DNA from: Candidatus Omnitrophota bacterium
GTDB taxonomy: Bacteria; Omnitrophota; Gorgyraeia; JAHIPI01
Reading direction: 5' to 3'
DNA: 64,000 nucleotides
Assembly: GCA_016783745.1 (NCBI GenBank)
Contig: JADHVZ010000005.1
Location: forward strand, 1,178-65,177
Under the pieces are notes generated by a model, which worked only from the letters and a program-made list of their open reading frames with translations, was not told where the DNA came from and ran no database searches. Made by a program: the position numbers and the translations under genes. Each line of letters begins with the position of its first letter. Positions within the stretch are counted from its first letter, which is position 1. Shown here piece after piece: positions 6,343 through 41,705 of the stretch.

Positions 6343-7871
6343 CGCGGGCCTTCCGCAATAAGTTTCTCTGCTATGCTTCTGTCGTTCTGAAGGCGCGGTA
6401 CTTTATGCTGGCCGCCAAGCTTTCCCTCTGATTTCATCCAGTCGTAAAAAGCCCCTTTTCTCAGCTTGATGACTTCCGGAAGGCCGACACTGATATCTCT
6501 ACCTCTATGCGCGTCATAGTCCGCATTCCCCTCCCGTAAACGCTTGTCCAGATAACGTATGAATCCCTTCGCATCAGATGGCTCTCTGATAAACTCTATC
6601 AACCACTGATGACATGGCAACCTCGACAGATCTTTTCGAAAAAGAGGCGCTACGGTATAATCTTCTATTTTAGAGTCAGTCATTTTACACGCGTAAGATA
6701 TGGCATCATCGGCATCCTTCACTATAAGATGCTCGCCAAAGGCGCTCAAGAAATTTTTTATCCTGCCTGTTACTGTCAATCTGAGCGGATCAAGATCAAC
6801 AAACTTTACCGTGTCGCCAAGTACGTAGCTATACAATCCGCTGTTATTAGTTATTATGATGGCATAATTTTTATTCTTTTCGACTTCGGCAACCGTCAGA
6901 CGCGCGGGATGATCATTATTGATCTCCTCTTCCGGGACAAATTCATAAAAATTCTCATAATCAAGCATTAGAAGCATACCCGGGCCTTCTTTTTTATCCT
7001 GTATAGCCATAAATGCCTCCGAGGCCGGATATATCTCGAGATAATATACATCCTTACCGATGACCTCGCGCAAAAGCTCCCTGTAGGGTGAAAAACTTAC
7101 GCCTCCGTGCACCAGCAGCGAAAGATCAGGCCATACCTCCGCCACAGTCTTGACTCTATTGCCGCTTCTTTTTCCCGCCTCCTCAAGCAATTTACCAAAA
7201 AACACGATCAGCCAGGACGGCACACCGGACAGGCCCCGTATATCCTCATCCACATCTTTTTGCGCTATTTTGCTGATCTTCTCTTCCCAGTCAGGTATAT
7301 GCGCGATCTCTCTACCTGGTTCATAAATGGACTTGAACATCAAAGGTACGGCGCGGGATATTATGCCGCTTAAGTCGCCCGCAAAGGCGCCTTTCTTCAG
7401 CTGTTTTAAGGAGGTGCTTCCTCCTAAAAAAAGAAATTTTCCGTTTAAGATCCGGCGGTCACCGCTTTCGCTTAAATAAAAACTCAGGCAATCCAAAGCG
7501 GCTTTTTTACTGATGGCTATGGAATCTTTTGAGACAGGAATATATTTGTCTCCGGACGTCGTACCTGAGGTAAGAGCAAAATTCCATATCCTGCCCGGCC
7601 ACGTCACGTTAACTCCGCCTTTTATGGCCTTGGCTATCCACGTCCGCATATCTTCATATTGAAAAAGCGGTACGCGCTTACGGTAGGCATCTATTGATTT
7701 GATGGATTTGAAGCCGTATTCCCGCCCGAATTCCGTGTATCTGGCTTTATCCAGGATAGAAAAAAGCGCTTTTTCCTGAAGCCTTAACGGGCGAGAATAT
7801 GTATCTCTTATCTCTTTTACCCGTCTCCGGGCATGCCCGGTAAGGTAAAAGTTAACTATGTTTTTTAGCAT
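6339..7871 (-). CDS. GH3 family acyl-acid amido synthetase homologue (ANL-superfamily adenylating enzyme)
   Basis: ALTSGTTSGDKYIPVS (P-loop-like SGTTSG), YENFYEFVP, YSYVLGDTVKFV and FGEHL motifs are characteristic of the GH3 auxin-responsive family (PF03321). Confidence 0.65.
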   Translation of the reverse strand: MLKNIVNFYLTGHARRRVKEIRDTYSRPLRLQEKALFSILDKARYTEFGREYGFKSIKSIDAYRKRVPLFQYEDMRTWIAKAIKGGVNVTWPGRIWNFALTSGTTSGDKYIPVSKDSIAISKKAALDCLSFYLSESGDRRILNGKFLFLGGSTSLKQLKKGAFAGDLSGIISRAVPLMFKSIYEPGREIAHIPDWEEKISKIAQKDVDEDIRGLSGVPSWLIVFFGKLLEEAGKRSGNRVKTVAEVWPDLSLLVHGGVSFSPYRELLREVIGKDVYYLEIYPASEAFMAIQDKKEGPGMLLMLDYENFYEFVPEEEINNDHPARLTVAEVEKNKNYAIIITNNSGLYSYVLGDTVKFVDLDPLRLTVTGRIKNFLSAFGEHLIVKDADDAISYACKMTDSKIEDYTVAPLFRKDLSRLPCHQWLIEFIREPSDAKGFIRYLDKRLREGNADYDAHRGRDISVGLPEVIKLRKGAFYDWMKSEGKLGGQHKVPRLQNDRSIAEKLIAEGPR

Positions 7872-15757: not shown

Positions 15758-17560
15758 CTAATTAACTTCCCTGAGGATCGCGGCGGATTTTTCTATATAA
15801 CCGGCATTATAATATGCCTTACTGAGATTGGAGCAGGAAGATCCGTTCCTTCGAATAGAAAGAGCCTTTTCGAAATGGTATATGGCATCGTCAAACATAT
15901 CCCGCTTGTCGAACAAGAAGCCAAGATTCGCATGTGCTTCATAAAATCCCGGCAATAGAGTTACGGCTTTTTTATACTCGGCCAGAGCCTCATCCTCCTT
16001 CCCTTTCTTCTCATAAAGCCAGCCAAGGCCGTTATGAGCGAAGGGGTGTTCAGGGTCGATCTCAAGAGCCTTTTTAAAATTCTTCTCCGCGATACCGTAG
16101 TCTTCAATGCTCATACTGGCTGTTGCGATATTAGTATAGATTTCTGCCTTTTCCGGCCCGCTATTCAAAGCATAATTATAATATGTCAGGGCTTTCTCAA
16201 AATCCTTGTTCTTTTCATAGATAGTACCGATATTGTAATACATCTTCGCTTTTTTGGGAGATGACTTAAGCGTGGCGGAATATATTGAAAGGTCGTCCTT
16301 CCAGTCCCTGTTGCGCATGAATGTCCTGAATGAATAAAGCGAGACTATGACCGCAAAAAAAGCTATAGCAAATTTAAGATCTATTTTCAGAGACTGGAGC
16401 CTTAAAAGCATCACGCTTATTATCATAAGAAAACCTATTGAGGGTATATACAGCCAGTGCTCAGCCATCTGCGCGCTCAGAGGCACTATATTCGAAAAGG
16501 GTATTAAAAAAGTTAAAAACCACGCTATTCCGAAAAATATCGCGCGTGATCTTTTATATGCGGCCACAGCTAAAAATATGATAAAAGCTAATCCCAGTAT
16601 TGAAAACACGCTATTCATATCAAAGATCGAGCGAGCCAGAGGAATGGCCCTCTCCATATGAAGGTCCGCCGGATAAAGGAGAAGCCCGATATAATCCATG
16701 ACTGTGCGGCACATCGTCAGAAGCTGCGCGCTTACAGTGGAGATGTTAGAAAAAACGTCGTTTTTCGGGGAAAAATCGAATATTGTAAGGCGTAACGTTA
16801 TATAAACCGCGCTGACCAGCAGATAGGGCCGTAATTTTCTGAACCGGGAAAGCCTGTTGCTTCCTCCTCTGTCAACGCTGACCCGTTTGCCATATGTAAG
16901 ATCATGCAATGCGAGCACCAGGGGAAATATTATAACAGACGCCTTCGACAGGAGGGCAAGGATATACATCGCTACAGATATCGGATAAAGCGCTCTTTTT
17001 TTTCTGGCGATGACATTATGCACGGAGTCCGGCTCATCATCCTTCTTTACAAGCTTCTCCTCAGGCGCTATCGAATAACGCCCCACATACGCTATGAAAG
17101 ACAATAAAAGAAAAAAGCACGCGAGGATATCAGAACGGCCCGTTAAATAATTAACCGCTCCGGTATGAACCGGGTGCACCAAAAAAAGTATGCTTGTAAG
17201 CAATGAGGCCATCCGGGATTTGCATAAAAAAAAGATGGTGAAAAAAACCAGTACGCCATTGGCAAAATGCAGCAGCACGTTAGTCAGATGGAAGCCGAAG
17301 GGGTTCAGTTTCCAAATATGGTAATCGATCAAAAACGAAACAGCCTGGACAGGCCTGTAATAATTACTATGGTCGAGCCCGAATTTTTCCACGTGCGAGT
17401 GATACAGGTCAGTAACAAATATTTTAGGGATGTATTTTACGTGAGTTATCAAGTCGTTATTCTCGATTGTGAGATGGTCATCCCACACAAAGGAATGGCT
17501 TAGTGAATTAAAATACACGGTCAGCGTGATCACGGCAAGCAGAAGAATTATTTTTTTCAT
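15758..17560 (-). CDS. TMTC-like membrane protein: N-terminal GT-C-type polytopic domain (FVWDDH acidic motif) plus C-terminal TPR array
   Basis: FVWDDH close to the N-terminus, followed by about 10 TM segments. C-terminal TPRs (AKMYYNIGTIYEKN, AEIYTNIATASMS, AHNGLGWLYEKKG, AHANLGFLFDKR). Confidence 0.55.
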   Translation of the reverse strand: MKKIILLLAVITLTVYFNSLSHSFVWDDHLTIENNDLITHVKYIPKIFVTDLYHSHVEKFGLDHSNYYRPVQAVSFLIDYHIWKLNPFGFHLTNVLLHFANGVLVFFTIFFLCKSRMASLLTSILFLVHPVHTGAVNYLTGRSDILACFFLLLSFIAYVGRYSIAPEEKLVKKDDEPDSVHNVIARKKRALYPISVAMYILALLSKASVIIFPLVLALHDLTYGKRVSVDRGGSNRLSRFRKLRPYLLVSAVYITLRLTIFDFSPKNDVFSNISTVSAQLLTMCRTVMDYIGLLLYPADLHMERAIPLARSIFDMNSVFSILGLAFIIFLAVAAYKRSRAIFFGIAWFLTFLIPFSNIVPLSAQMAEHWLYIPSIGFLMIISVMLLRLQSLKIDLKFAIAFFAVIVSLYSFRTFMRNRDWKDDLSIYSATLKSSPKKAKMYYNIGTIYEKNKDFEKALTYYNYALNSGPEKAEIYTNIATASMSIEDYGIAEKNFKKALEIDPEHPFAHNGLGWLYEKKGKEDEALAEYKKAVTLLPGFYEAHANLGFLFDKRDMFDDAIYHFEKALSIRRNGSSCSNLSKAYYNAGYIEKSAAILREVN

Positions 17561-37604: not shown

Positions 37605-39412
37605 CCCATGCACCTCAACATAAATATGAATAAGACCAGCATCCCTATGAGACACCAGGTAATATACGTAGACAAAACACCGTTATGGAGATATTGTAAC
37701 ACCCGCGTAACGCTAAAGATAAATCTACGGCAAAGCTGATAGATGTCGAAAAGCCCTTCCCCTGCCATCCCATATATTTTTCCGAATATGGGGATATCCG
37801 CGATCGTATTATAGAATTCCGTCCCCGTCGGCCTTTCTTCAACCGGCAACACCTCTCCGCCGATAAAAGGTTCGGCTGTCCTCGCGGTCTTTATAGTTCC
37901 CAGTAAATATATAGCGGCTCCCACAGCCAATCCGGCAATAATAAATATGGTCGCCGATCCGGGCTGCCATAATCCGGCATAAGAAATATCTCCGAAGACA
38001 GCGGGTATTATAAAATATTTCAGCGGTATACCAAAAGCGAATACCCCGAATACTATACAAAGAACGGCAAGTATTCCCATCGGTACCCACATCGATGCCG
38101 GGACTTCCTTGACCTGCCTGTCACTACCCGCGCCTTGCTGTCCCAAAAACACGGCATGCAGCAATTTCATGAAGCTCGCGAGAGTCAGCGCGCTTCCGAA
38201 CATAGCGGTGGCAAGCCATATGATCCAGAGCCTGCCGCCGTCTTTACCCAGGTCTATTATACTCTGATATATCATCCATTTTGAGACGAAACCGTTAAAA
38301 GGAGGTATGCCCGATATCGCGAGCGAACTTATCAGGCAGCATAAAAATGTGATCGGCATAAAGTGCGCGATTCCGCCAAGCTTGTCAAGCTGTGTCGTAC
38401 CTGTTTTTTTCTCAACGGCACCGGCTGATAAAAATAACGCGTTTTTGTAAATAGCGTTGTTCAGCATATGAAATAACCCGCCGGCAATACCGATCGGATT
38501 AGCCGTTCCGATCCCTACCACCATATAGCCTACCTGACTTACCGCGTGATATGACAAGAGACGCTTCATATCATGCTGAACAAGGGCCATCATAACACCC
38601 GCGATAATAGTGAAAGACCCGGTTATCAATAATAACAGGCTCAATCCGCTATTCGGCACTACCACGAATATCCCACAAACAATTCTTGCCAGAAAATATA
38701 TACCTAAAAGTTTATCCAGGCTCGCCGGCAAAAATGCCATCACGGGAACCGGCGCGGCCTTTGCCGAATCAGGGATCCATGTGTGCAGAGGCATGACGCC
38801 TCCCTTAGCGAACGCGCCGACTAAGAGACAAACGAAAGCAATGACCATAGAACCATTGTTAAGCAATAAGGCGTATTCATCCATTCTAAACGACCCGGTG
38901 GCCCTCCACAGGATCGCGACCCCGACCAGCATAATGGCATCGGAACCGCCTACTATTATGAATGTCTTTTTTGCCGCATCCTTAGCCCCATCTCCCCCGA
39001 TCCCTATCAATAGATACAGGGTTATCCCCAGGAATCCCCAGAATACCATAAAGAGGAGGATGTTATTTGCCAGGACTGCCCCTATAGAACCGGCTATAGT
39101 CGCGAGAATATAGGCATAATAATTTCCTATATTTATTCTATCCTTCATGAAACCGGCAGAATAAAGGATCGCCAGAACGCCGAAAAAGGCTATAAAGATA
39201 AGAACAAATGCCGAGAGGCTATCTACCCTTAACAGGCCTGGGATCCCGTAGATACTCCATATGACAGGATTCATCCTGAAGATCTCTATGGAGCCGAATA
39301 GTACGAAAGCAGAAACTACCAGGGCAAAGACAGGTTTGATTTTTCGCGGTAGAAACGCGCAGATCACGCTCGCCATGAAGGTGACTGATATAAGAGTCAC
39401 AGGGTTATTCAA
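37601..39412 (-). CDS. mrpA: MrpA/NuoL-like antiporter subunit
   Basis: 603 aa, about 16 TM. HTWIPDSAKAAPVPVMAFLPASL motif of the NuoL/MrpA family. Confidence 0.75.
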   Translation of the reverse strand: MNNPVTLISVTFMASVICAFLPRKIKPVFALVVSAFVLFGSIEIFRMNPVIWSIYGIPGLLRVDSLSAFVLIFIAFFGVLAILYSAGFMKDRINIGNYYAYILATIAGSIGAVLANNILLFMVFWGFLGITLYLLIGIGGDGAKDAAKKTFIIVGGSDAIMLVGVAILWRATGSFRMDEYALLLNNGSMVIAFVCLLVGAFAKGGVMPLHTWIPDSAKAAPVPVMAFLPASLDKLLGIYFLARIVCGIFVVVPNSGLSLLLLITGSFTIIAGVMMALVQHDMKRLLSYHAVSQVGYMVVGIGTANPIGIAGGLFHMLNNAIYKNALFLSAGAVEKKTGTTQLDKLGGIAHFMPITFLCCLISSLAISGIPPFNGFVSKWMIYQSIIDLGKDGGRLWIIWLATAMFGSALTLASFMKLLHAVFLGQQGAGSDRQVKEVPASMWVPMGILAVLCIVFGVFAFGIPLKYFIIPAVFGDISYAGLWQPGSATIFIIAGLAVGAAIYLLGTIKTARTAEPFIGGEVLPVEERPTGTEFYNTIADIPIFGKIYGMAGEGLFDIYQLCRRFIFSVTRVLQYLHNGVLSTYITWCLIGMLVLFIFMLRCMG

Positions 39413-40637
39413 TTTTCCGTCCCATTTTTTTAGTCAATTCACTATCCGAAAAACCCATGGATTTGCCCAGATCCCACGTCTTATGCTGCGAGAGATGGAT
39501 CAGCCTCTCGGCTCCGCATACAATATTGTTTTTCTTATGATCGATCGCCGTTAACCTCTCCGTGCAGCAATAGCACGGATCGATCGCCGCCAATATTATG
39601 GTAGCGTCCGAGATGGTCTCGCCCACGACCGTTTTTTTAAAGCTCGGGAAATTCATGAACGTAGGGGCGCGCACTTTATGCCTGACCGGACGGTTTGTCC
39701 CGTCGCTTCTCACTATATGTATGACCTCGCCCCTCGGCGCTTCATGATGTCCTATGCCGTCACCCGGGGATATATGCTTCGGCTTACAATCAATGGGGCC
39801 GGCGGGCAGTTTATCAAAACACTGATTTAAGATCTTAATGGACTCGAACATCTCAAGGATCCTTATCACGGCCTTAGCAAACACATCACCTTCATACTGC
39901 AGGATCACTTTCCAGTCGACCCTGTCGTAAGCGGCATATGGCTCATCTCGCCTTACATCTATATCATATCCGGAAGCCCTCGCTGTCGGCCCGAGAACGC
40001 TATAATCGACCGCGTCCTCATGCTTCAGCACTCCCACTCCCTTTAGCCGCGCCGCTAAAACCGGATCATCCAGCACCGCGCCCTTGAACATCTCCACAGC
40101 GGGCAGGAGTTCGTCATTTATGACTTTTTTGTAATACGGTATCTCGCTATTATCTATATCCCTTCTTACTCCGCCGGGCTTCATCATAGCATAGTTATTT
40201 CTATTGCCTGAAATAGCTTCAAGCACGTCCAGAATAGGCTCTCTATAGCGCCATGCCCACATGAATACCGTATTGTATCCAAGGAAATGGCCGGCCAGTC
40301 CGAGCCACAGCATATGCGAATGCAGTCTTTCAAGTTCGCCTGTTATTGTCCGGATATAAAGCGCTCTTTCCGGGACTTCCATCTCATCGATATCCTCAAC
40401 GGCGTTTACGAACGCGATAGGATGGCTTGTCGAGCAAATACCGCAGATCCTCTCGACCAGGTAAGCTGACTGGTCAAAACTTTTGGATTCGGAGAGCTTC
40501 TCGATGCCTCTGTGATTCCAGCCGATCCTGACATCTATATCGACGACCCTCTCACCGTCTACGACGAGCTTATAAAATTCCGGCTCTTCCTGCAGCGGAT
40601 GATACGGGCCGATGGGTATGGTGACTTTGTGGCTCAT
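39405..40637 (-). CDS. [NiFe] hydrogenase group 4 large subunit (NuoD/HycE/EchE-like)
   Basis: N-terminal RICGICSTSH and C-terminal DPCYCCTER Ni-Fe ligating cysteine motifs. Confidence 0.85.
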   Translation of the reverse strand: MSHKVTIPIGPYHPLQEEPEFYKLVVDGERVVDIDVRIGWNHRGIEKLSESKSFDQSAYLVERICGICSTSHPIAFVNAVEDIDEMEVPERALYIRTITGELERLHSHMLWLGLAGHFLGYNTVFMWAWRYREPILDVLEAISGNRNNYAMMKPGGVRRDIDNSEIPYYKKVINDELLPAVEMFKGAVLDDPVLAARLKGVGVLKHEDAVDYSVLGPTARASGYDIDVRRDEPYAAYDRVDWKVILQYEGDVFAKAVIRILEMFESIKILNQCFDKLPAGPIDCKPKHISPGDGIGHHEAPRGEVIHIVRSDGTNRPVRHKVRAPTFMNFPSFKKTVVGETISDATIILAAIDPCYCCTERLTAIDHKKNNIVCGAERLIHLSQHKTWDLGKSMGFSDSELTKKMGRKIE

Positions 40638-40800
40638 TTGTCCTTACTCCTATAACGTCATTGCGAGGAGCCTTGCCGCCAAAGGCGGCAGGGCGACGAA
40701 GCAATCTCAATCTGGGATTGCTTCGGCACTTCGTGCCTCGCAACAAGTTCGACCATACAACTTATGTTCACTTTCGTTCCATAAGTTGTGGTCTCACTTG
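40638..40800. mobile_element. 163-bp highly structured insertion flanked by 13-bp direct repeats CTTTGTGGCTCAT (MITE-like element or structured RNA)
   Basis: 13-mer at 40625-40637 (large-subunit start codon region) is duplicated at 40801-40813, overlapping the NuoC-like stop. Insert contains three inverted-repeat pairs (ttgcgagg/cctcgcaa, gaagcaatc/gattgcttc, caacttatg/cataagttg) and gccgcc-aaa-ggcggc. Confidence 0.5.
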
Positions 40801-40809
40801 CTTTGTGGC

Positions 40810-41283
40810 TCATCGGCTCGACTCCTTCTGAGAATTCAAACTAAACTCTTTTCGCATCGGGTATTTATCCTTCGGCCAATCATCAGGCAGGAGAAGCGGC
40901 TTCATGTCAGGATGGCCCTTAAATTCGACCCCGAAAAGCTCATGCATCTCCCTCTCTATCCATCCCACGGCATTCGCTACCGGCACCAGAGACTCGACCG
41001 CGCAATCATCCTTCGGCGCGTATATCCTCAATGTGATGATCAGTCCGAGCCTATCCACATTAAAGTGATACATGATCTCTATATTTTCCGGATGGTCCAC
41101 CGCGGTCGCGGTATTAAACCTCGCCTCAAGGTCTTTGAACACATAACTCGCGAATTCGACTATATCTTTTCTGTCAAGGTCTATATATACCCGCTTGGAT
41201 GACTTCTCCTGAAAGCGTTTTATCTTGCCGCCGAATTTTTTCTTAATACTCGCTATAACCGCGCTTCTATCCATTTTGATCAC
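40810..41283 (-). CDS. NuoC-like (30-kDa) hydrogenase subunit
   Basis: 157 aa. Fold and position match NuoC/HycE-N/EchD. Located between the small- and large-subunit genes. Confidence 0.65.
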   Translation of the reverse strand: MIKMDRSAVIASIKKKFGGKIKRFQEKSSKRVYIDLDRKDIVEFASYVFKDLEARFNTATAVDHPENIEIMYHFNVDRLGLIITLRIYAPKDDCAVESLVPVANAVGWIEREMHELFGVEFKGHPDMKPLLLPDDWPKDKYPMRKEFSLNSQKESSR

Positions 41284-41705
41284 TTGCCTTTCGCCTTGAC
41301 CAGCTTTACGATGCCGTCTATTATCGCCTCAGGCTTCGGCGGACAGCCCGGTATATAGGCGTCGACCGGGAGGACCTTATCCAGCGGCTCCGCCTCATCT
41401 ACCATATAGGTATTGCTGAACATGCCCCGCCCTGCCGTGCAGGTCCCCACCGCGATTACGAAGCCGGGTTTCGGCATCTGGTCATACATCTTTTTTACTA
41501 TCGGCTTGCATTGCTTATTTAGAATCCCCGTGACTAAAAGTACGTCGGCGTGCCTTATAGACCCGACCAGCAATATCCCGAAACGCTCCACATCGTGCCT
41601 TGGCGTCAATAGATCCAGTATTTCTATGTCACAGTTGTTGCAGCTTGCCGTAGACAGATGGAACACCCAGAGTGACTTTGTTAATGCCTTGATCTTGACT
41701 GACAT
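41280..41705 (-). CDS. [NiFe] hydrogenase group 4 small subunit (NuoB-like)
   Basis: CNNC...GTCTAG...IPGCPP cysteines of the proximal [4Fe-4S] cluster. Confidence 0.8.
   Translation of the reverse strand: MSVKIKALTKSLWVFHLSTASCNNCDIEILDLLTPRHDVERFGILLVGSIRHADVLLVTGILNKQCKPIVKKMYDQMPKPGFVIAVGTCTAGRGMFSNTYMVDEAEPLDKVLPVDAYIPGCPPKPEAIIDGIVKLVKAKGK

Follow-up and report, generated by a model that had tools for sequence, protein, structure and literature searches.

A structured repeat probably inserted with target duplication into a stop/start overlap of a [NiFe] hydrogenase operon from Candidatus Omnitrophota

Among the described bacterial repeats closest to the element reported here are the CGTC-tagged repetitive extragenic palindromes (REPs), which include dRS3 from Neisseria as well as RPE-4 and RPE-6 from Rickettsia (Di Nocera et al., 2013; PMC3733652). 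These REPs have been defined by an unpaired CGTC (or TGTC/CCTC) tag, a stem of 8-9 bp starting with complementary A-T pairs, a loop of 4-5 nt and an unpaired 3′ tail with the consensus CCA; they are predominantly found as inverted dimers, have no associated transposase and have been described mainly in Proteobacteria (PMC3733652). The element in question is a 163-bp segment from a metagenome-assembled genome (MAG) of Candidatus Omnitrophota, located between the NuoC-like gene and the large-subunit gene of an Mbh/Mrp-type membrane-bound [NiFe] hydrogenase operon within the 64-kb stretch of DNA that was analyzed (hereafter the window). This segment is probably a non-autonomous, highly structured mobile repeat which was inserted into an ancestral ATGA overlap between both genes with a 13-nt target duplication. 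Other loci are designated below by L numbers.

The segment is bounded by the 13-mer CTTTGTGGCTCAT (plus strand), which reads ATGAGCCACAAAG on the coding, minus strand. As a previous sequence-only reading had reported, this 13-mer occurs exactly twice in the window, at 40625-40637 and 40801-40813, with exactly 163 bp between its copies. No third copy was found in the 64 kb at up to one mismatch, 0/100 shuffles gave an equal number of matches, and we estimate that such a recurrence within 200 bp is expected ~3e-6 times. Integration would have duplicated these 13 nt of the target. The NuoC-like TGA is left in the upstream copy and the large-subunit ATG in the downstream one, both open reading frames (ORFs) being intact. 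This retention of the stop of one gene and the start of the other by the duplication explains how an insertion at such a sensitive site could be survived. The spacer is identical in two independent assemblies (ENA ERZ24794672 and ERZ24794666) and is thus not an assembly artefact. A chance or local event, in which a small tandem duplication of the start region was followed by de novo hairpin growth without any mobile element, would agree with the presence of a single copy in the window. This explanation is effectively refuted, since a recurrence of the 13-mer is hardly expected by chance and is not reproduced by shuffles, and since both modules of the segment match, with high significance, families found at many other loci.

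The insert proved to be a composite of a long hairpin (module A), an inverted doublet of REP-like units (U′ and U; 40656-40743) and an 18-nt tail. Its parts, with the flanking repeats and the frame that crosses it, are as follows:

40801..40813, minus strand: upstream copy of the putative target duplication (ATGAGCCACAAAG), an exact 13/13 repeat; its TGA is the NuoC-like stop and its ATG opens a 51-codon ORF through the element.
40744..40800, minus strand: module A, a 57-nt irregular hairpin; covariance-model score 81 bits, E = 5e-18.
40713..40743, minus strand: U′ unit, with inverted repeats I1 and I10; this REP-like palindrome has the architecture of a dispersed family.
40656..40706, minus strand: U unit, the inverted partner of U′; exact match to the dispersed pattern GATTGCTTC N4-34 CTCGCAATGAC.
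40638..40655, minus strand: 18-nt 3′ tail (TTATAGGAGTAAGGACAA), read from the sequence, with a Shine-Dalgarno-like AGGAG/AAGGA for the large-subunit gene.
40625..40637, minus strand: downstream copy of the putative target duplication and true start (MSHK...) of the large-subunit gene; orthologs begin with the same ATGAGCCAYAARG.
40658..40813, minus strand: 51-codon "bridge" ORF (MSHKASETTTYGTKVNISCMVELVARHEVPKQSQIEIASSPCRLWRQGSSQ, then stop), which runs from the duplicated ATG to a stop 20 nt ahead of the real start codon.

Inverted repeats are found in the spacer at 40757-66/40780-89, 40697-709/40713-25 and 40670-80/40684-94, with an enclosing one at 40661-68/40736-43. The four inverted repeats named previously were all located, and the one at 40670-80/40684-94 is the gccgcc-aaa-ggcggc palindrome with extended arms. 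What had been described as three independent hairpins corresponds, however, to two modules: the first is a single long hairpin, the second a REP-like doublet in inverted arrangement with an inner hairpin in each arm. Folding and comparison with Rfam, which had been proposed as checks, gave a strong predicted fold for the coding-strand RNA (-79.7 kcal/mol; z = -6.6 against 200 dinucleotide shuffles) and no Rfam family near threshold, the best scores of an Rfam 15 scan of the window region being 14-18 bits for gathering scores of 35-56. Neither promoter-like nor terminator-like sites were detected in 40300-41300. Two other readings of this region were considered and rejected. The sequence GTGAGACCACAA, directly after the upstream 13-mer, might be taken for the gene start in a third, degenerate copy; this reading fails since ATGAGACC also stands at unrelated loci, as the element's conserved 5′ end. 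A regulatory switch in which the right arm of the left hairpin would pair with the true NuoD start was dismissed as well, the complementarity amounting to 5-7 bp with mismatches in three genomes.

The junction was then compared in metagenome contigs encoding close homologs and in 80 species-representative genomes. In most of the 80 species, the NuoC-like stop overlaps with the start of the large subunit or is at most 4 nt away from it (spacer of -4 to +4 nt). An uninterrupted junction, sought in orthologous operons as had been suggested, is present within the well-supported clade of the window itself, in L003 (88% large-subunit identity), L130 (87%) and L008 (81%), and the NuoC 3′ end of L003 aligns with the window right up to ATGA (...cctcaggaagggtcacgctcATGAGCCACAAGGTCACC). 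The former ATGA coupling, postulated from the window alone, is hence recovered in relatives. Judged from these alignments, the ancestral state is an ATGA-coupled junction, from which the window gained 163 bp and a second 13-nt copy; the 163-bp spacer is therefore an insertion. In the host tree, two subclades, A1 (74% bootstrap) and A2 (100%), both mix filled and empty junctions.

The two genes which flank the insertion are the following:

40810-41283, minus strand: NuoC/MbhK-like gene (Complex1_30kDa), the upstream host gene, identified by Pfam and NCBIfam matches.
39405-40637, minus strand: group-4 [NiFe] hydrogenase large subunit (NuoD/MbhL-like), the downstream host gene, identified by Pfam Complex1_49kDa and NiFeSe_Hases.

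The former reads ...GAGCCGATGA at its 3′ end and the latter ATGAGCCACAAAGTCACC at its 5′ end. The large subunit contains both nickel-ligand motifs, RICGICSTSH and DPCYCC, with CxxC at residues 65 and 355. The operon runs from Rex through a ShyB/ShyC-like protein, a ferredoxin-type protein and NuoH-, NuoB-, NuoC- and NuoD-like subunits to Mrp-type antiporter subunits.

In other lineages, unrelated structured inserts were observed at the NuoC/NuoD junction of L005, L133, L135, L140 and L186. They include a hairpin GGGGTCAGACCCTC...GAGGGTCTGACCCC (L005:2402-2500), CCAGGTTAGA...TCTAACCTGG (L133:979-1050), an AT-rich palindrome with TTCGAAAT-type repeats (L140:6085-6216) and a further structured insert (L186:322-420). 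Because unrelated structured inserts occupy it, this junction seems to be a general landing site for palindromic repeats.

Module A has a conserved structure. From the base outward, the window copy consists of helix P1a (CAAGU/ACUUG), a tandem G.A/A.G internal loop, helix P1b (GACC/GGUC), an AU bulge, helix P2 (ACAACUUAUG/CAUAAGUUGU) and a 13-nt loop; across the family, the UGA...GAA of the internal loop is invariant, P1a has 4-6 bp, P2 has 10 bp and the bulge has 2 nt. In 17 diverse copies, 96% of cells are paired and compensatory changes are found in 13/20 pairs, a result that 0/500 shuffles match, and pairing falls to 24-43% in a control with slid partners. P1b is even fully swapped with compensation in L004 (GCAA/UUGC), in L175 (GACU/AGUC) and in the second element of L278 (GCAC/GUGC), where P2 itself has a tandem G.A loop. 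G-U pairs account for 2/326 cells. Their near-absence suggests that it is in the DNA, or on both strands, that complementarity is important, the G.A core being specific to one strand. The UGA...GAA core was also inspected as a hammerhead or a K-turn and, on inspection, fits neither consensus.

A covariance model built from these 17 family copies has a single match in the window and recovers, in 1.23 Mb of related genomes, L161, L131 and L132 along with a new, untrained copy in L175 (E = 1e-6). The L161 match sits at a different junction of the same hydrogenase operon. In JGI metagenomes, the pattern TGAGACC N30-55 ATGGTCGAA N6-9 CGAGG matched at least 120 loci; ~90 of those listed form the expected hairpin, at no fewer than 75 distinct flanks, and the other ~30 are the anticipated chance matches. 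The search for other copies that had been advised thus located them at unrelated loci. Two patterns searched in viral contigs gave 0 matches, so module A, unlike the U unit, is not obviously phage-borne. The exact composite, in which module A is followed by the U′-loop-U doublet, is itself present at unrelated loci (L225/L230, L229/L248 and L271), and in L248 it lies between two co-directional genes, as in the window. In copies found through module A alone, the second, U-like hairpin (module B) is closed by ATCCC/GGGAT, ATTGC/GCAAT or ATCGC/GCGAT. Among the matches listed, 24/75 copies have a long same-strand upstream ORF which ends exactly at the TAA of the element, inside P1a.

Two subfamilies can be distinguished. 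In the abundant one, the left end is perfectly fixed and the right end is found at three or more alternative positions; its long form ends in a terminator-like hairpin, a part that the window copy does not have, and its medium form has imperfect inverted termini (TGAGACCCAAATTT / AAATTTGGGTCTAA). Its host is a Syntrophaceae-type member of Desulfobacterota, a neighbouring protein being 94% identical to a Syntrophaceae MAG protein, and the host of the window-like subfamily is Omnitrophota. For L248, host placement is ambiguous, its GvpN neighbour being too conserved. On the basis of these assignments, the module A family spans at least two phyla. An Rfam scan of eight family loci returned at most sub-threshold noise (24 bits vs 55). 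In the REP literature, neither a counterpart nor a published description of module A was found; the Omnitrophota literature on REPs and on transposable elements of the miniature inverted-repeat type (MITEs) gave nothing relevant, and sequence-string matches concerned unrelated primers only. The suspicion that the segment might be an undescribed small mobile element was therefore well founded, with no Rfam match and a family present at many loci.

The other possibility raised by the sequence-only reading was a native cis-regulatory or intercistronic RNA which would set the ratio of membrane-arm to catalytic subunits. The 13-mer repeat would then be part of its design. The very stable fold (z = -6.6), the conserved structure with covariation and the position of the element, between cistrons and co-oriented with the operon, all agree with such a role, and REP-type hairpins do modulate the stability of operon mRNAs (general knowledge; reviewed in PMC3733652). 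Yet the element is absent from most orthologous operons, including those of the nearest relatives, the same element stands beside unrelated genes at unrelated loci, where both orientations occur (it is in opposite orientation in L161), and there is neither an Rfam match nor a promoter- or terminator-like site. The scarcity of G-U pairs would also be unusual for an element selected as RNA only. A native regulatory RNA is thus very unlikely, and we retain the insertion of a mobile repeat.

Several copies of module A show further features. The "TTTAA" which precedes most copies was considered as an IS200/IS605-type target and rejected: since it is inside the duplication boundary in duplication-bearing copies and covaries with the 3′ strand of P1a, it is host sequence and not a target. 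At L260, where an empty site was sought, synteny is broken downstream of the element. In abundant-subfamily copies (L221, L222, L235, L244, L251, L256, L288 and others), the GAA-containing loops of both hairpins carry nested mini-insertions of 20-22 nt (e.g. TAACCTAAAGGTCACTATAG and TACCCTGAAGGGCATCTTCGA), always at CGAA|G, sometimes in both loops of one element and sometimes stacked (L237 and L288). These look like a second, still smaller mobile or templated unit aimed at these loops. A short-form element is found at the end of the same alcohol-dehydrogenase-like gene (83-96% identical) in L216, L252, L272 and L309, the gene ending on it, and the sequence beyond the element differs among three of these four contigs; the element may mark rearrangement breakpoints.

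Direct repeats different from the window 13-mer, the existence of which had been proposed as a check, were found at other copies. In L161, from another Omnitrophota genome, an 88-bp element made of modules A and B separates the ShyC-like gene of the same operon from the ferredoxin gene and has the opposite orientation. The repeat on its flanks measures 32 nt (97% identical) and holds the downstream start codon and the end of the upstream gene, i.e. an overlapping junction again. In L278 (6300-6680, minus strand), two related, nested elements precede a tRNA-Arg(CCG); the 5′ end of the tRNA, together with ~38 nt upstream of it, has been duplicated as 14-, 24- and 52-nt repeats, and one intact tRNA remains. 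At the NuoC/NuoD junction of L004, the repeat measures 17 nt and contains one mismatch. Overall, duplication lengths are 13, 14, 17, 24, 32 and 52 nt, with no fixed length. Every duplication, in the window as in L161, L278 and L004, ends exactly at the first base of P1a. At the other side, a short tail foreign to the family separates the last hairpin from the second repeat; the 18-nt tail of the window copy was not found in other family copies, the tails of which are unrelated too. As a control, 1,420 pairings of left and right flanks gave no shared word longer than 10 nt.

The second part of the insert belongs to a family of REP-like palindromes. In the window, the U′ unit has a degenerate tag (CTTG), a closing stem TTGC/GCAA, a GAGG...CCGAA internal loop, an inner hairpin GGCACgaaGUGCC and a tail CCCA; the U unit is made of GATTGCTTCG, an inner hairpin (GCCCTGCCGCC ttt GGCGGCAAGGC) and CTCGCAATGACG, with its CGTC tag on the plus strand (40656-40659) and a tail CTCA. 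The U pattern (GATTGCTTCG-x-CTCGCAATGAC and its complement) matched at least 120 viral contigs, often several times per contig. Among the viral matches listed, there are 181 U copies, of which the commonest form is the 26-mer GATTGCTTCGCTTCGCTCGCAATGAC, holding a GCGAAGC mini-hairpin, and many are inverted pairs with tags outward and outer ends CGTCATTGCGAG. These viral copies are devoid of flanking duplications. A fuzzy search for the U unit returned 10 copies in 1.27 Mb of Omnitrophota-type loci, compared with 0 in shuffles, and U doublets are also present at other junctions of the same hydrogenase operon in L161 and L146.

Compared with CGTC REPs, U units share the CGTC tag, a stem with A-T then T-A pairs (ATTGC...GCAAT) and a CCA-type tail, CCA following GCAAT in many copies. 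Like them, U and U′ mostly form inverted dimers that can fold as a single long hairpin, and are highly dispersed without flanking duplication or linked transposase. In contrast, the stem of U has 5 bp and closes a GA-rich internal loop (GAGG / CCGAA) followed by a variable inner hairpin of 7-27 nt, at variance with the 8-9-bp stem and 4-5-nt loop of CGTC REPs. The U family is also found in Omnitrophota, Syntrophaceae-like genomes and phage contigs and, in the window, is joined to module A. The U stem sequence is absent from the text and supplements of PMC3733652.

Several arrangements of U units were noted in passing. At L161:2990-3230, the arms of a U′-U doublet are ~170 bp apart and enclose ~5 copies of CCGCCTGTCCCG followed by ~5 copies of GAGCGAAGTCGAGGG, in effect a minisatellite within a REP-like dimer; this locus has further doublets at 2830-2940, 7735-7853 (NuoH/NuoB junction) and 16590-16709. 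In the viral contig L055 (2695-2818), four U units follow each other head to tail with a 33-nt period, as a tandem array and not as inverted dimers, without CRISPR-like spacers. In L012, L013, L015, L099, L101, L117 and other phage contigs, a single U′ directly precedes a Shine-Dalgarno sequence and a start codon, at a nearly constant distance from the start (...GAAGCAATC tcaaaaggaggaaaccATG), which suggests that U′ is often part of 5′ leaders in these contigs. Finally, the window doublet (40656-40743), relative to module A, resembles the reverse complement of the L248 doublet (6690-6775): the two arms have exchanged their inner hairpins, GGCACgaaGTGCC and CCTGCCGCCtttGGCGGC, and identity is 70% flipped vs 65% direct. 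The palindromic doublet may thus invert, or insert beside module A in either orientation.

The likeness to REPs raises the question whether the whole insert could be of the REP/REPIN type and have been moved, in the form of single-stranded DNA, by a tyrosine transposase of the HUH class, either a REP-associated tyrosine transposase (RAYT) or an IS200/IS605-like one. Since this route produces no target duplication, the flanking repeats would come from separate repair or slippage. The tag of the U units, the A-T start of their stem, their CCA-type tail and their occurrence as inverted dimers agree with the CGTC-REP description (PMC3733652). Furthermore, most copies have neither flanking duplications nor terminal inverted repeats, the conserved hairpins have unpaired or mismatched bases on one strand, and one end is precisely fixed while the other is variable. 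This explanation has nevertheless to account for at least five independent copies with duplications which start exactly at the first base of the element and regenerate an essential feature; since the element sits precisely between both duplication copies, a separate, later repeat event is unlikely. In addition, CGTC REPs have been reported without an associated transposase (PMC3733652), and no RAYT gene was seen within 2.5 kb of 90 copies. We regard transposition of this type as improbable, and an insertion which itself duplicates the target remains the preferred explanation.

The other described elements to be compared are bacterial MITEs such as Correia/NEMIS, ERIC, RUP and Nezha. As they do, the elements of this family measure ~90-200 bp, are non-coding, dispersed and strongly folding, are often co-transcribed between genes and have filled and empty sites among relatives; the medium form of the abundant subfamily has, besides, imperfect inverted termini. 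They differ from MITEs in that terminal inverted repeats are missing from the window copy, a fixed end is combined with a variable one, and duplications are mostly absent or else 13-52 nt long rather than short and fixed. As for a parent insertion sequence, no protein recurs within 2.5 kb of 90 copies. Small size, lack of coding capacity and multiple copies were thus found, but neither terminal inverted repeats nor a fixed duplication length. The MITE-type insertion with target-site duplication initially proposed stands as a small, non-coding mobile insertion with a duplication; it does not stand as a classical MITE, the insert being moreover a composite of two families.

Duplications of tens of bases without fixed length are made by the IS1634/IS1549 group of the IS4 family, the members of which are autonomous DDE elements with inverted ends that duplicate their target at every insertion. 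Module A elements resemble them by their long, variable duplications, but most copies have none and there is no linked transposase. Rickettsia RPEs and intragenic REPs are likewise structured repeats which are tolerated because a reading frame or gene ends are preserved; RPEs are, however, translated in frame within a host protein, whereas the window element lies between genes kept intact by the junction duplication.

Some observations weigh against the insertion of a mobile repeat with target duplication. No terminal inverted repeats were found, the window element having ends (CAAGTGAGACC... and ...GTAAGGACAA) which are not complementary, and no further copy was detected in the 64 kb by BLAST, pattern or covariance-model search. 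Among the family copies listed, ~65/72 have no flanking duplication of at least 8 nt, and in the abundant subfamily no duplications are visible, short ones included. Because most copies have none, either duplication is not an obligatory product or two mechanisms exist. Within 2.5 kb of 90 copies, no recurrent linked protein or transposase was found, neighbour clustering yielding housekeeping families alone. Finally, related inserts at the same NuoC/NuoD junction are present in both subclades of the host tree, which could mean one old insertion followed by precise losses.

According to this last explanation, a single insertion took place in the ancestor of the clade, the spacers of the window, L004, L006/L007 and L132 are fast-diverging orthologous remnants, and L003, L130 and L008 lost the insert by precise excision between direct repeats, whereby the ATGA overlap was re-established. 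Composites of the same architecture do occupy the same junction in both A1 and A2, L004 and the window have similar left junctions, and palindromes between direct repeats can be deleted precisely by replication slippage. Several lines of evidence point the other way. Module A of the window is 79-86% identical to copies from unrelated loci (L248, 86%; L229, 83%; L225, 81%; L276, 80%; L232, 79%) vs 61-65% to the supposed orthologs at the same junction (L004, 65%; L006, 61%; L132, 61%), and the truly orthologous copies of L006 and L132 are 86% identical to each other. The duplications of the window (13 nt) and L004 (17 nt) differ at both boundaries, and both window copies of the 13-mer carry AAAG, where the relatives L003 and L004 carry AAGG. 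L006, L132 and L133 have no upstream repeat, and their sister L008 has a perfect overlap of the ancestral type; since the repeat is lacking in L006 and L133, L008 could not have reverted from the state of its sisters. At least three independent precise losses would also be needed. A single old insertion appears unlikely for these reasons, and sequence identities, duplication boundaries and the L008 overlap favour repeated independent insertion at the NuoC/NuoD junction.

If the window element was acquired in this way, a selfish structured repeat can enter a 4-nt stop/start overlap in a respiratory-type operon, among the most tightly constrained sites of bacterial genomes, and spare both genes by duplicating the junction. 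What is new here is a covarying hairpin family without an Rfam entry, module A, linked to a very widespread CGTC-type REP-like palindrome. More tentatively, and with a probability well below even, module A may represent an undescribed class of structured, non-autonomous mobile elements common to Omnitrophota and Syntrophaceae-type Desulfobacterota, with a non-canonical integration characterized by a 5′ end that is precisely defined, a 3′ end that varies and carries short foreign tails, and duplications from 0 to >50 nt. As a matter of speculation, a pattern in which the 5′ end is fixed while the 3′ end and the duplications vary would agree with target-primed or replicative template-switch insertion and not DDE or HUH transposition. 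Long, variable duplications and this fixed-5′/variable-3′ anatomy misfit standard bacterial transposition, and a new integration mechanism becomes testable. Were this proposal true, module A elements could colonize tRNA genes as well as the junctions of overlapping genes with no loss of gene function, and NuoC/NuoD and similar operon junctions would become recurrent landing sites.

From the duplicated ATG which overlaps the NuoC stop, a frame of 51 codons extends across all the hairpins; its analogue in L004 is an ORF of 69 codons (L004:2295-2504), ATGA-to-ATGA linked at both ends. Translation of the 51-codon ORF would let ribosomes melt the hairpins and keep coupling by termination-reinitiation, and the Shine-Dalgarno sequence of the 3′ tail would help to keep large-subunit expression. 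As read from these sequence features, downstream expression is probably kept by the tail Shine-Dalgarno sequence and the bridge ORF together. The bridge idea is based on these two frames; we estimate the chance that both are open jointly at ~0.003, which is no more than suggestive. By analogy with REP elements, a side effect on mRNA stability or processing is possible, and the element is preferably regarded as a selfish passenger for which any such effect would be secondary. Knowledge of this family also helps the annotation of MAGs from candidate phyla, in which spurious small ORFs are called within the elements. Gene callers annotate the element-spanning frames as hypothetical proteins of 51 aa (window 40658-40813, minus strand) and 69 aa (L004:2295-2504), and peptides such as ...VARHEVPKQSQIEIASS..., which are translations of REP-like units, will probably turn up again among the spurious "hypothetical proteins" of annotated MAGs.

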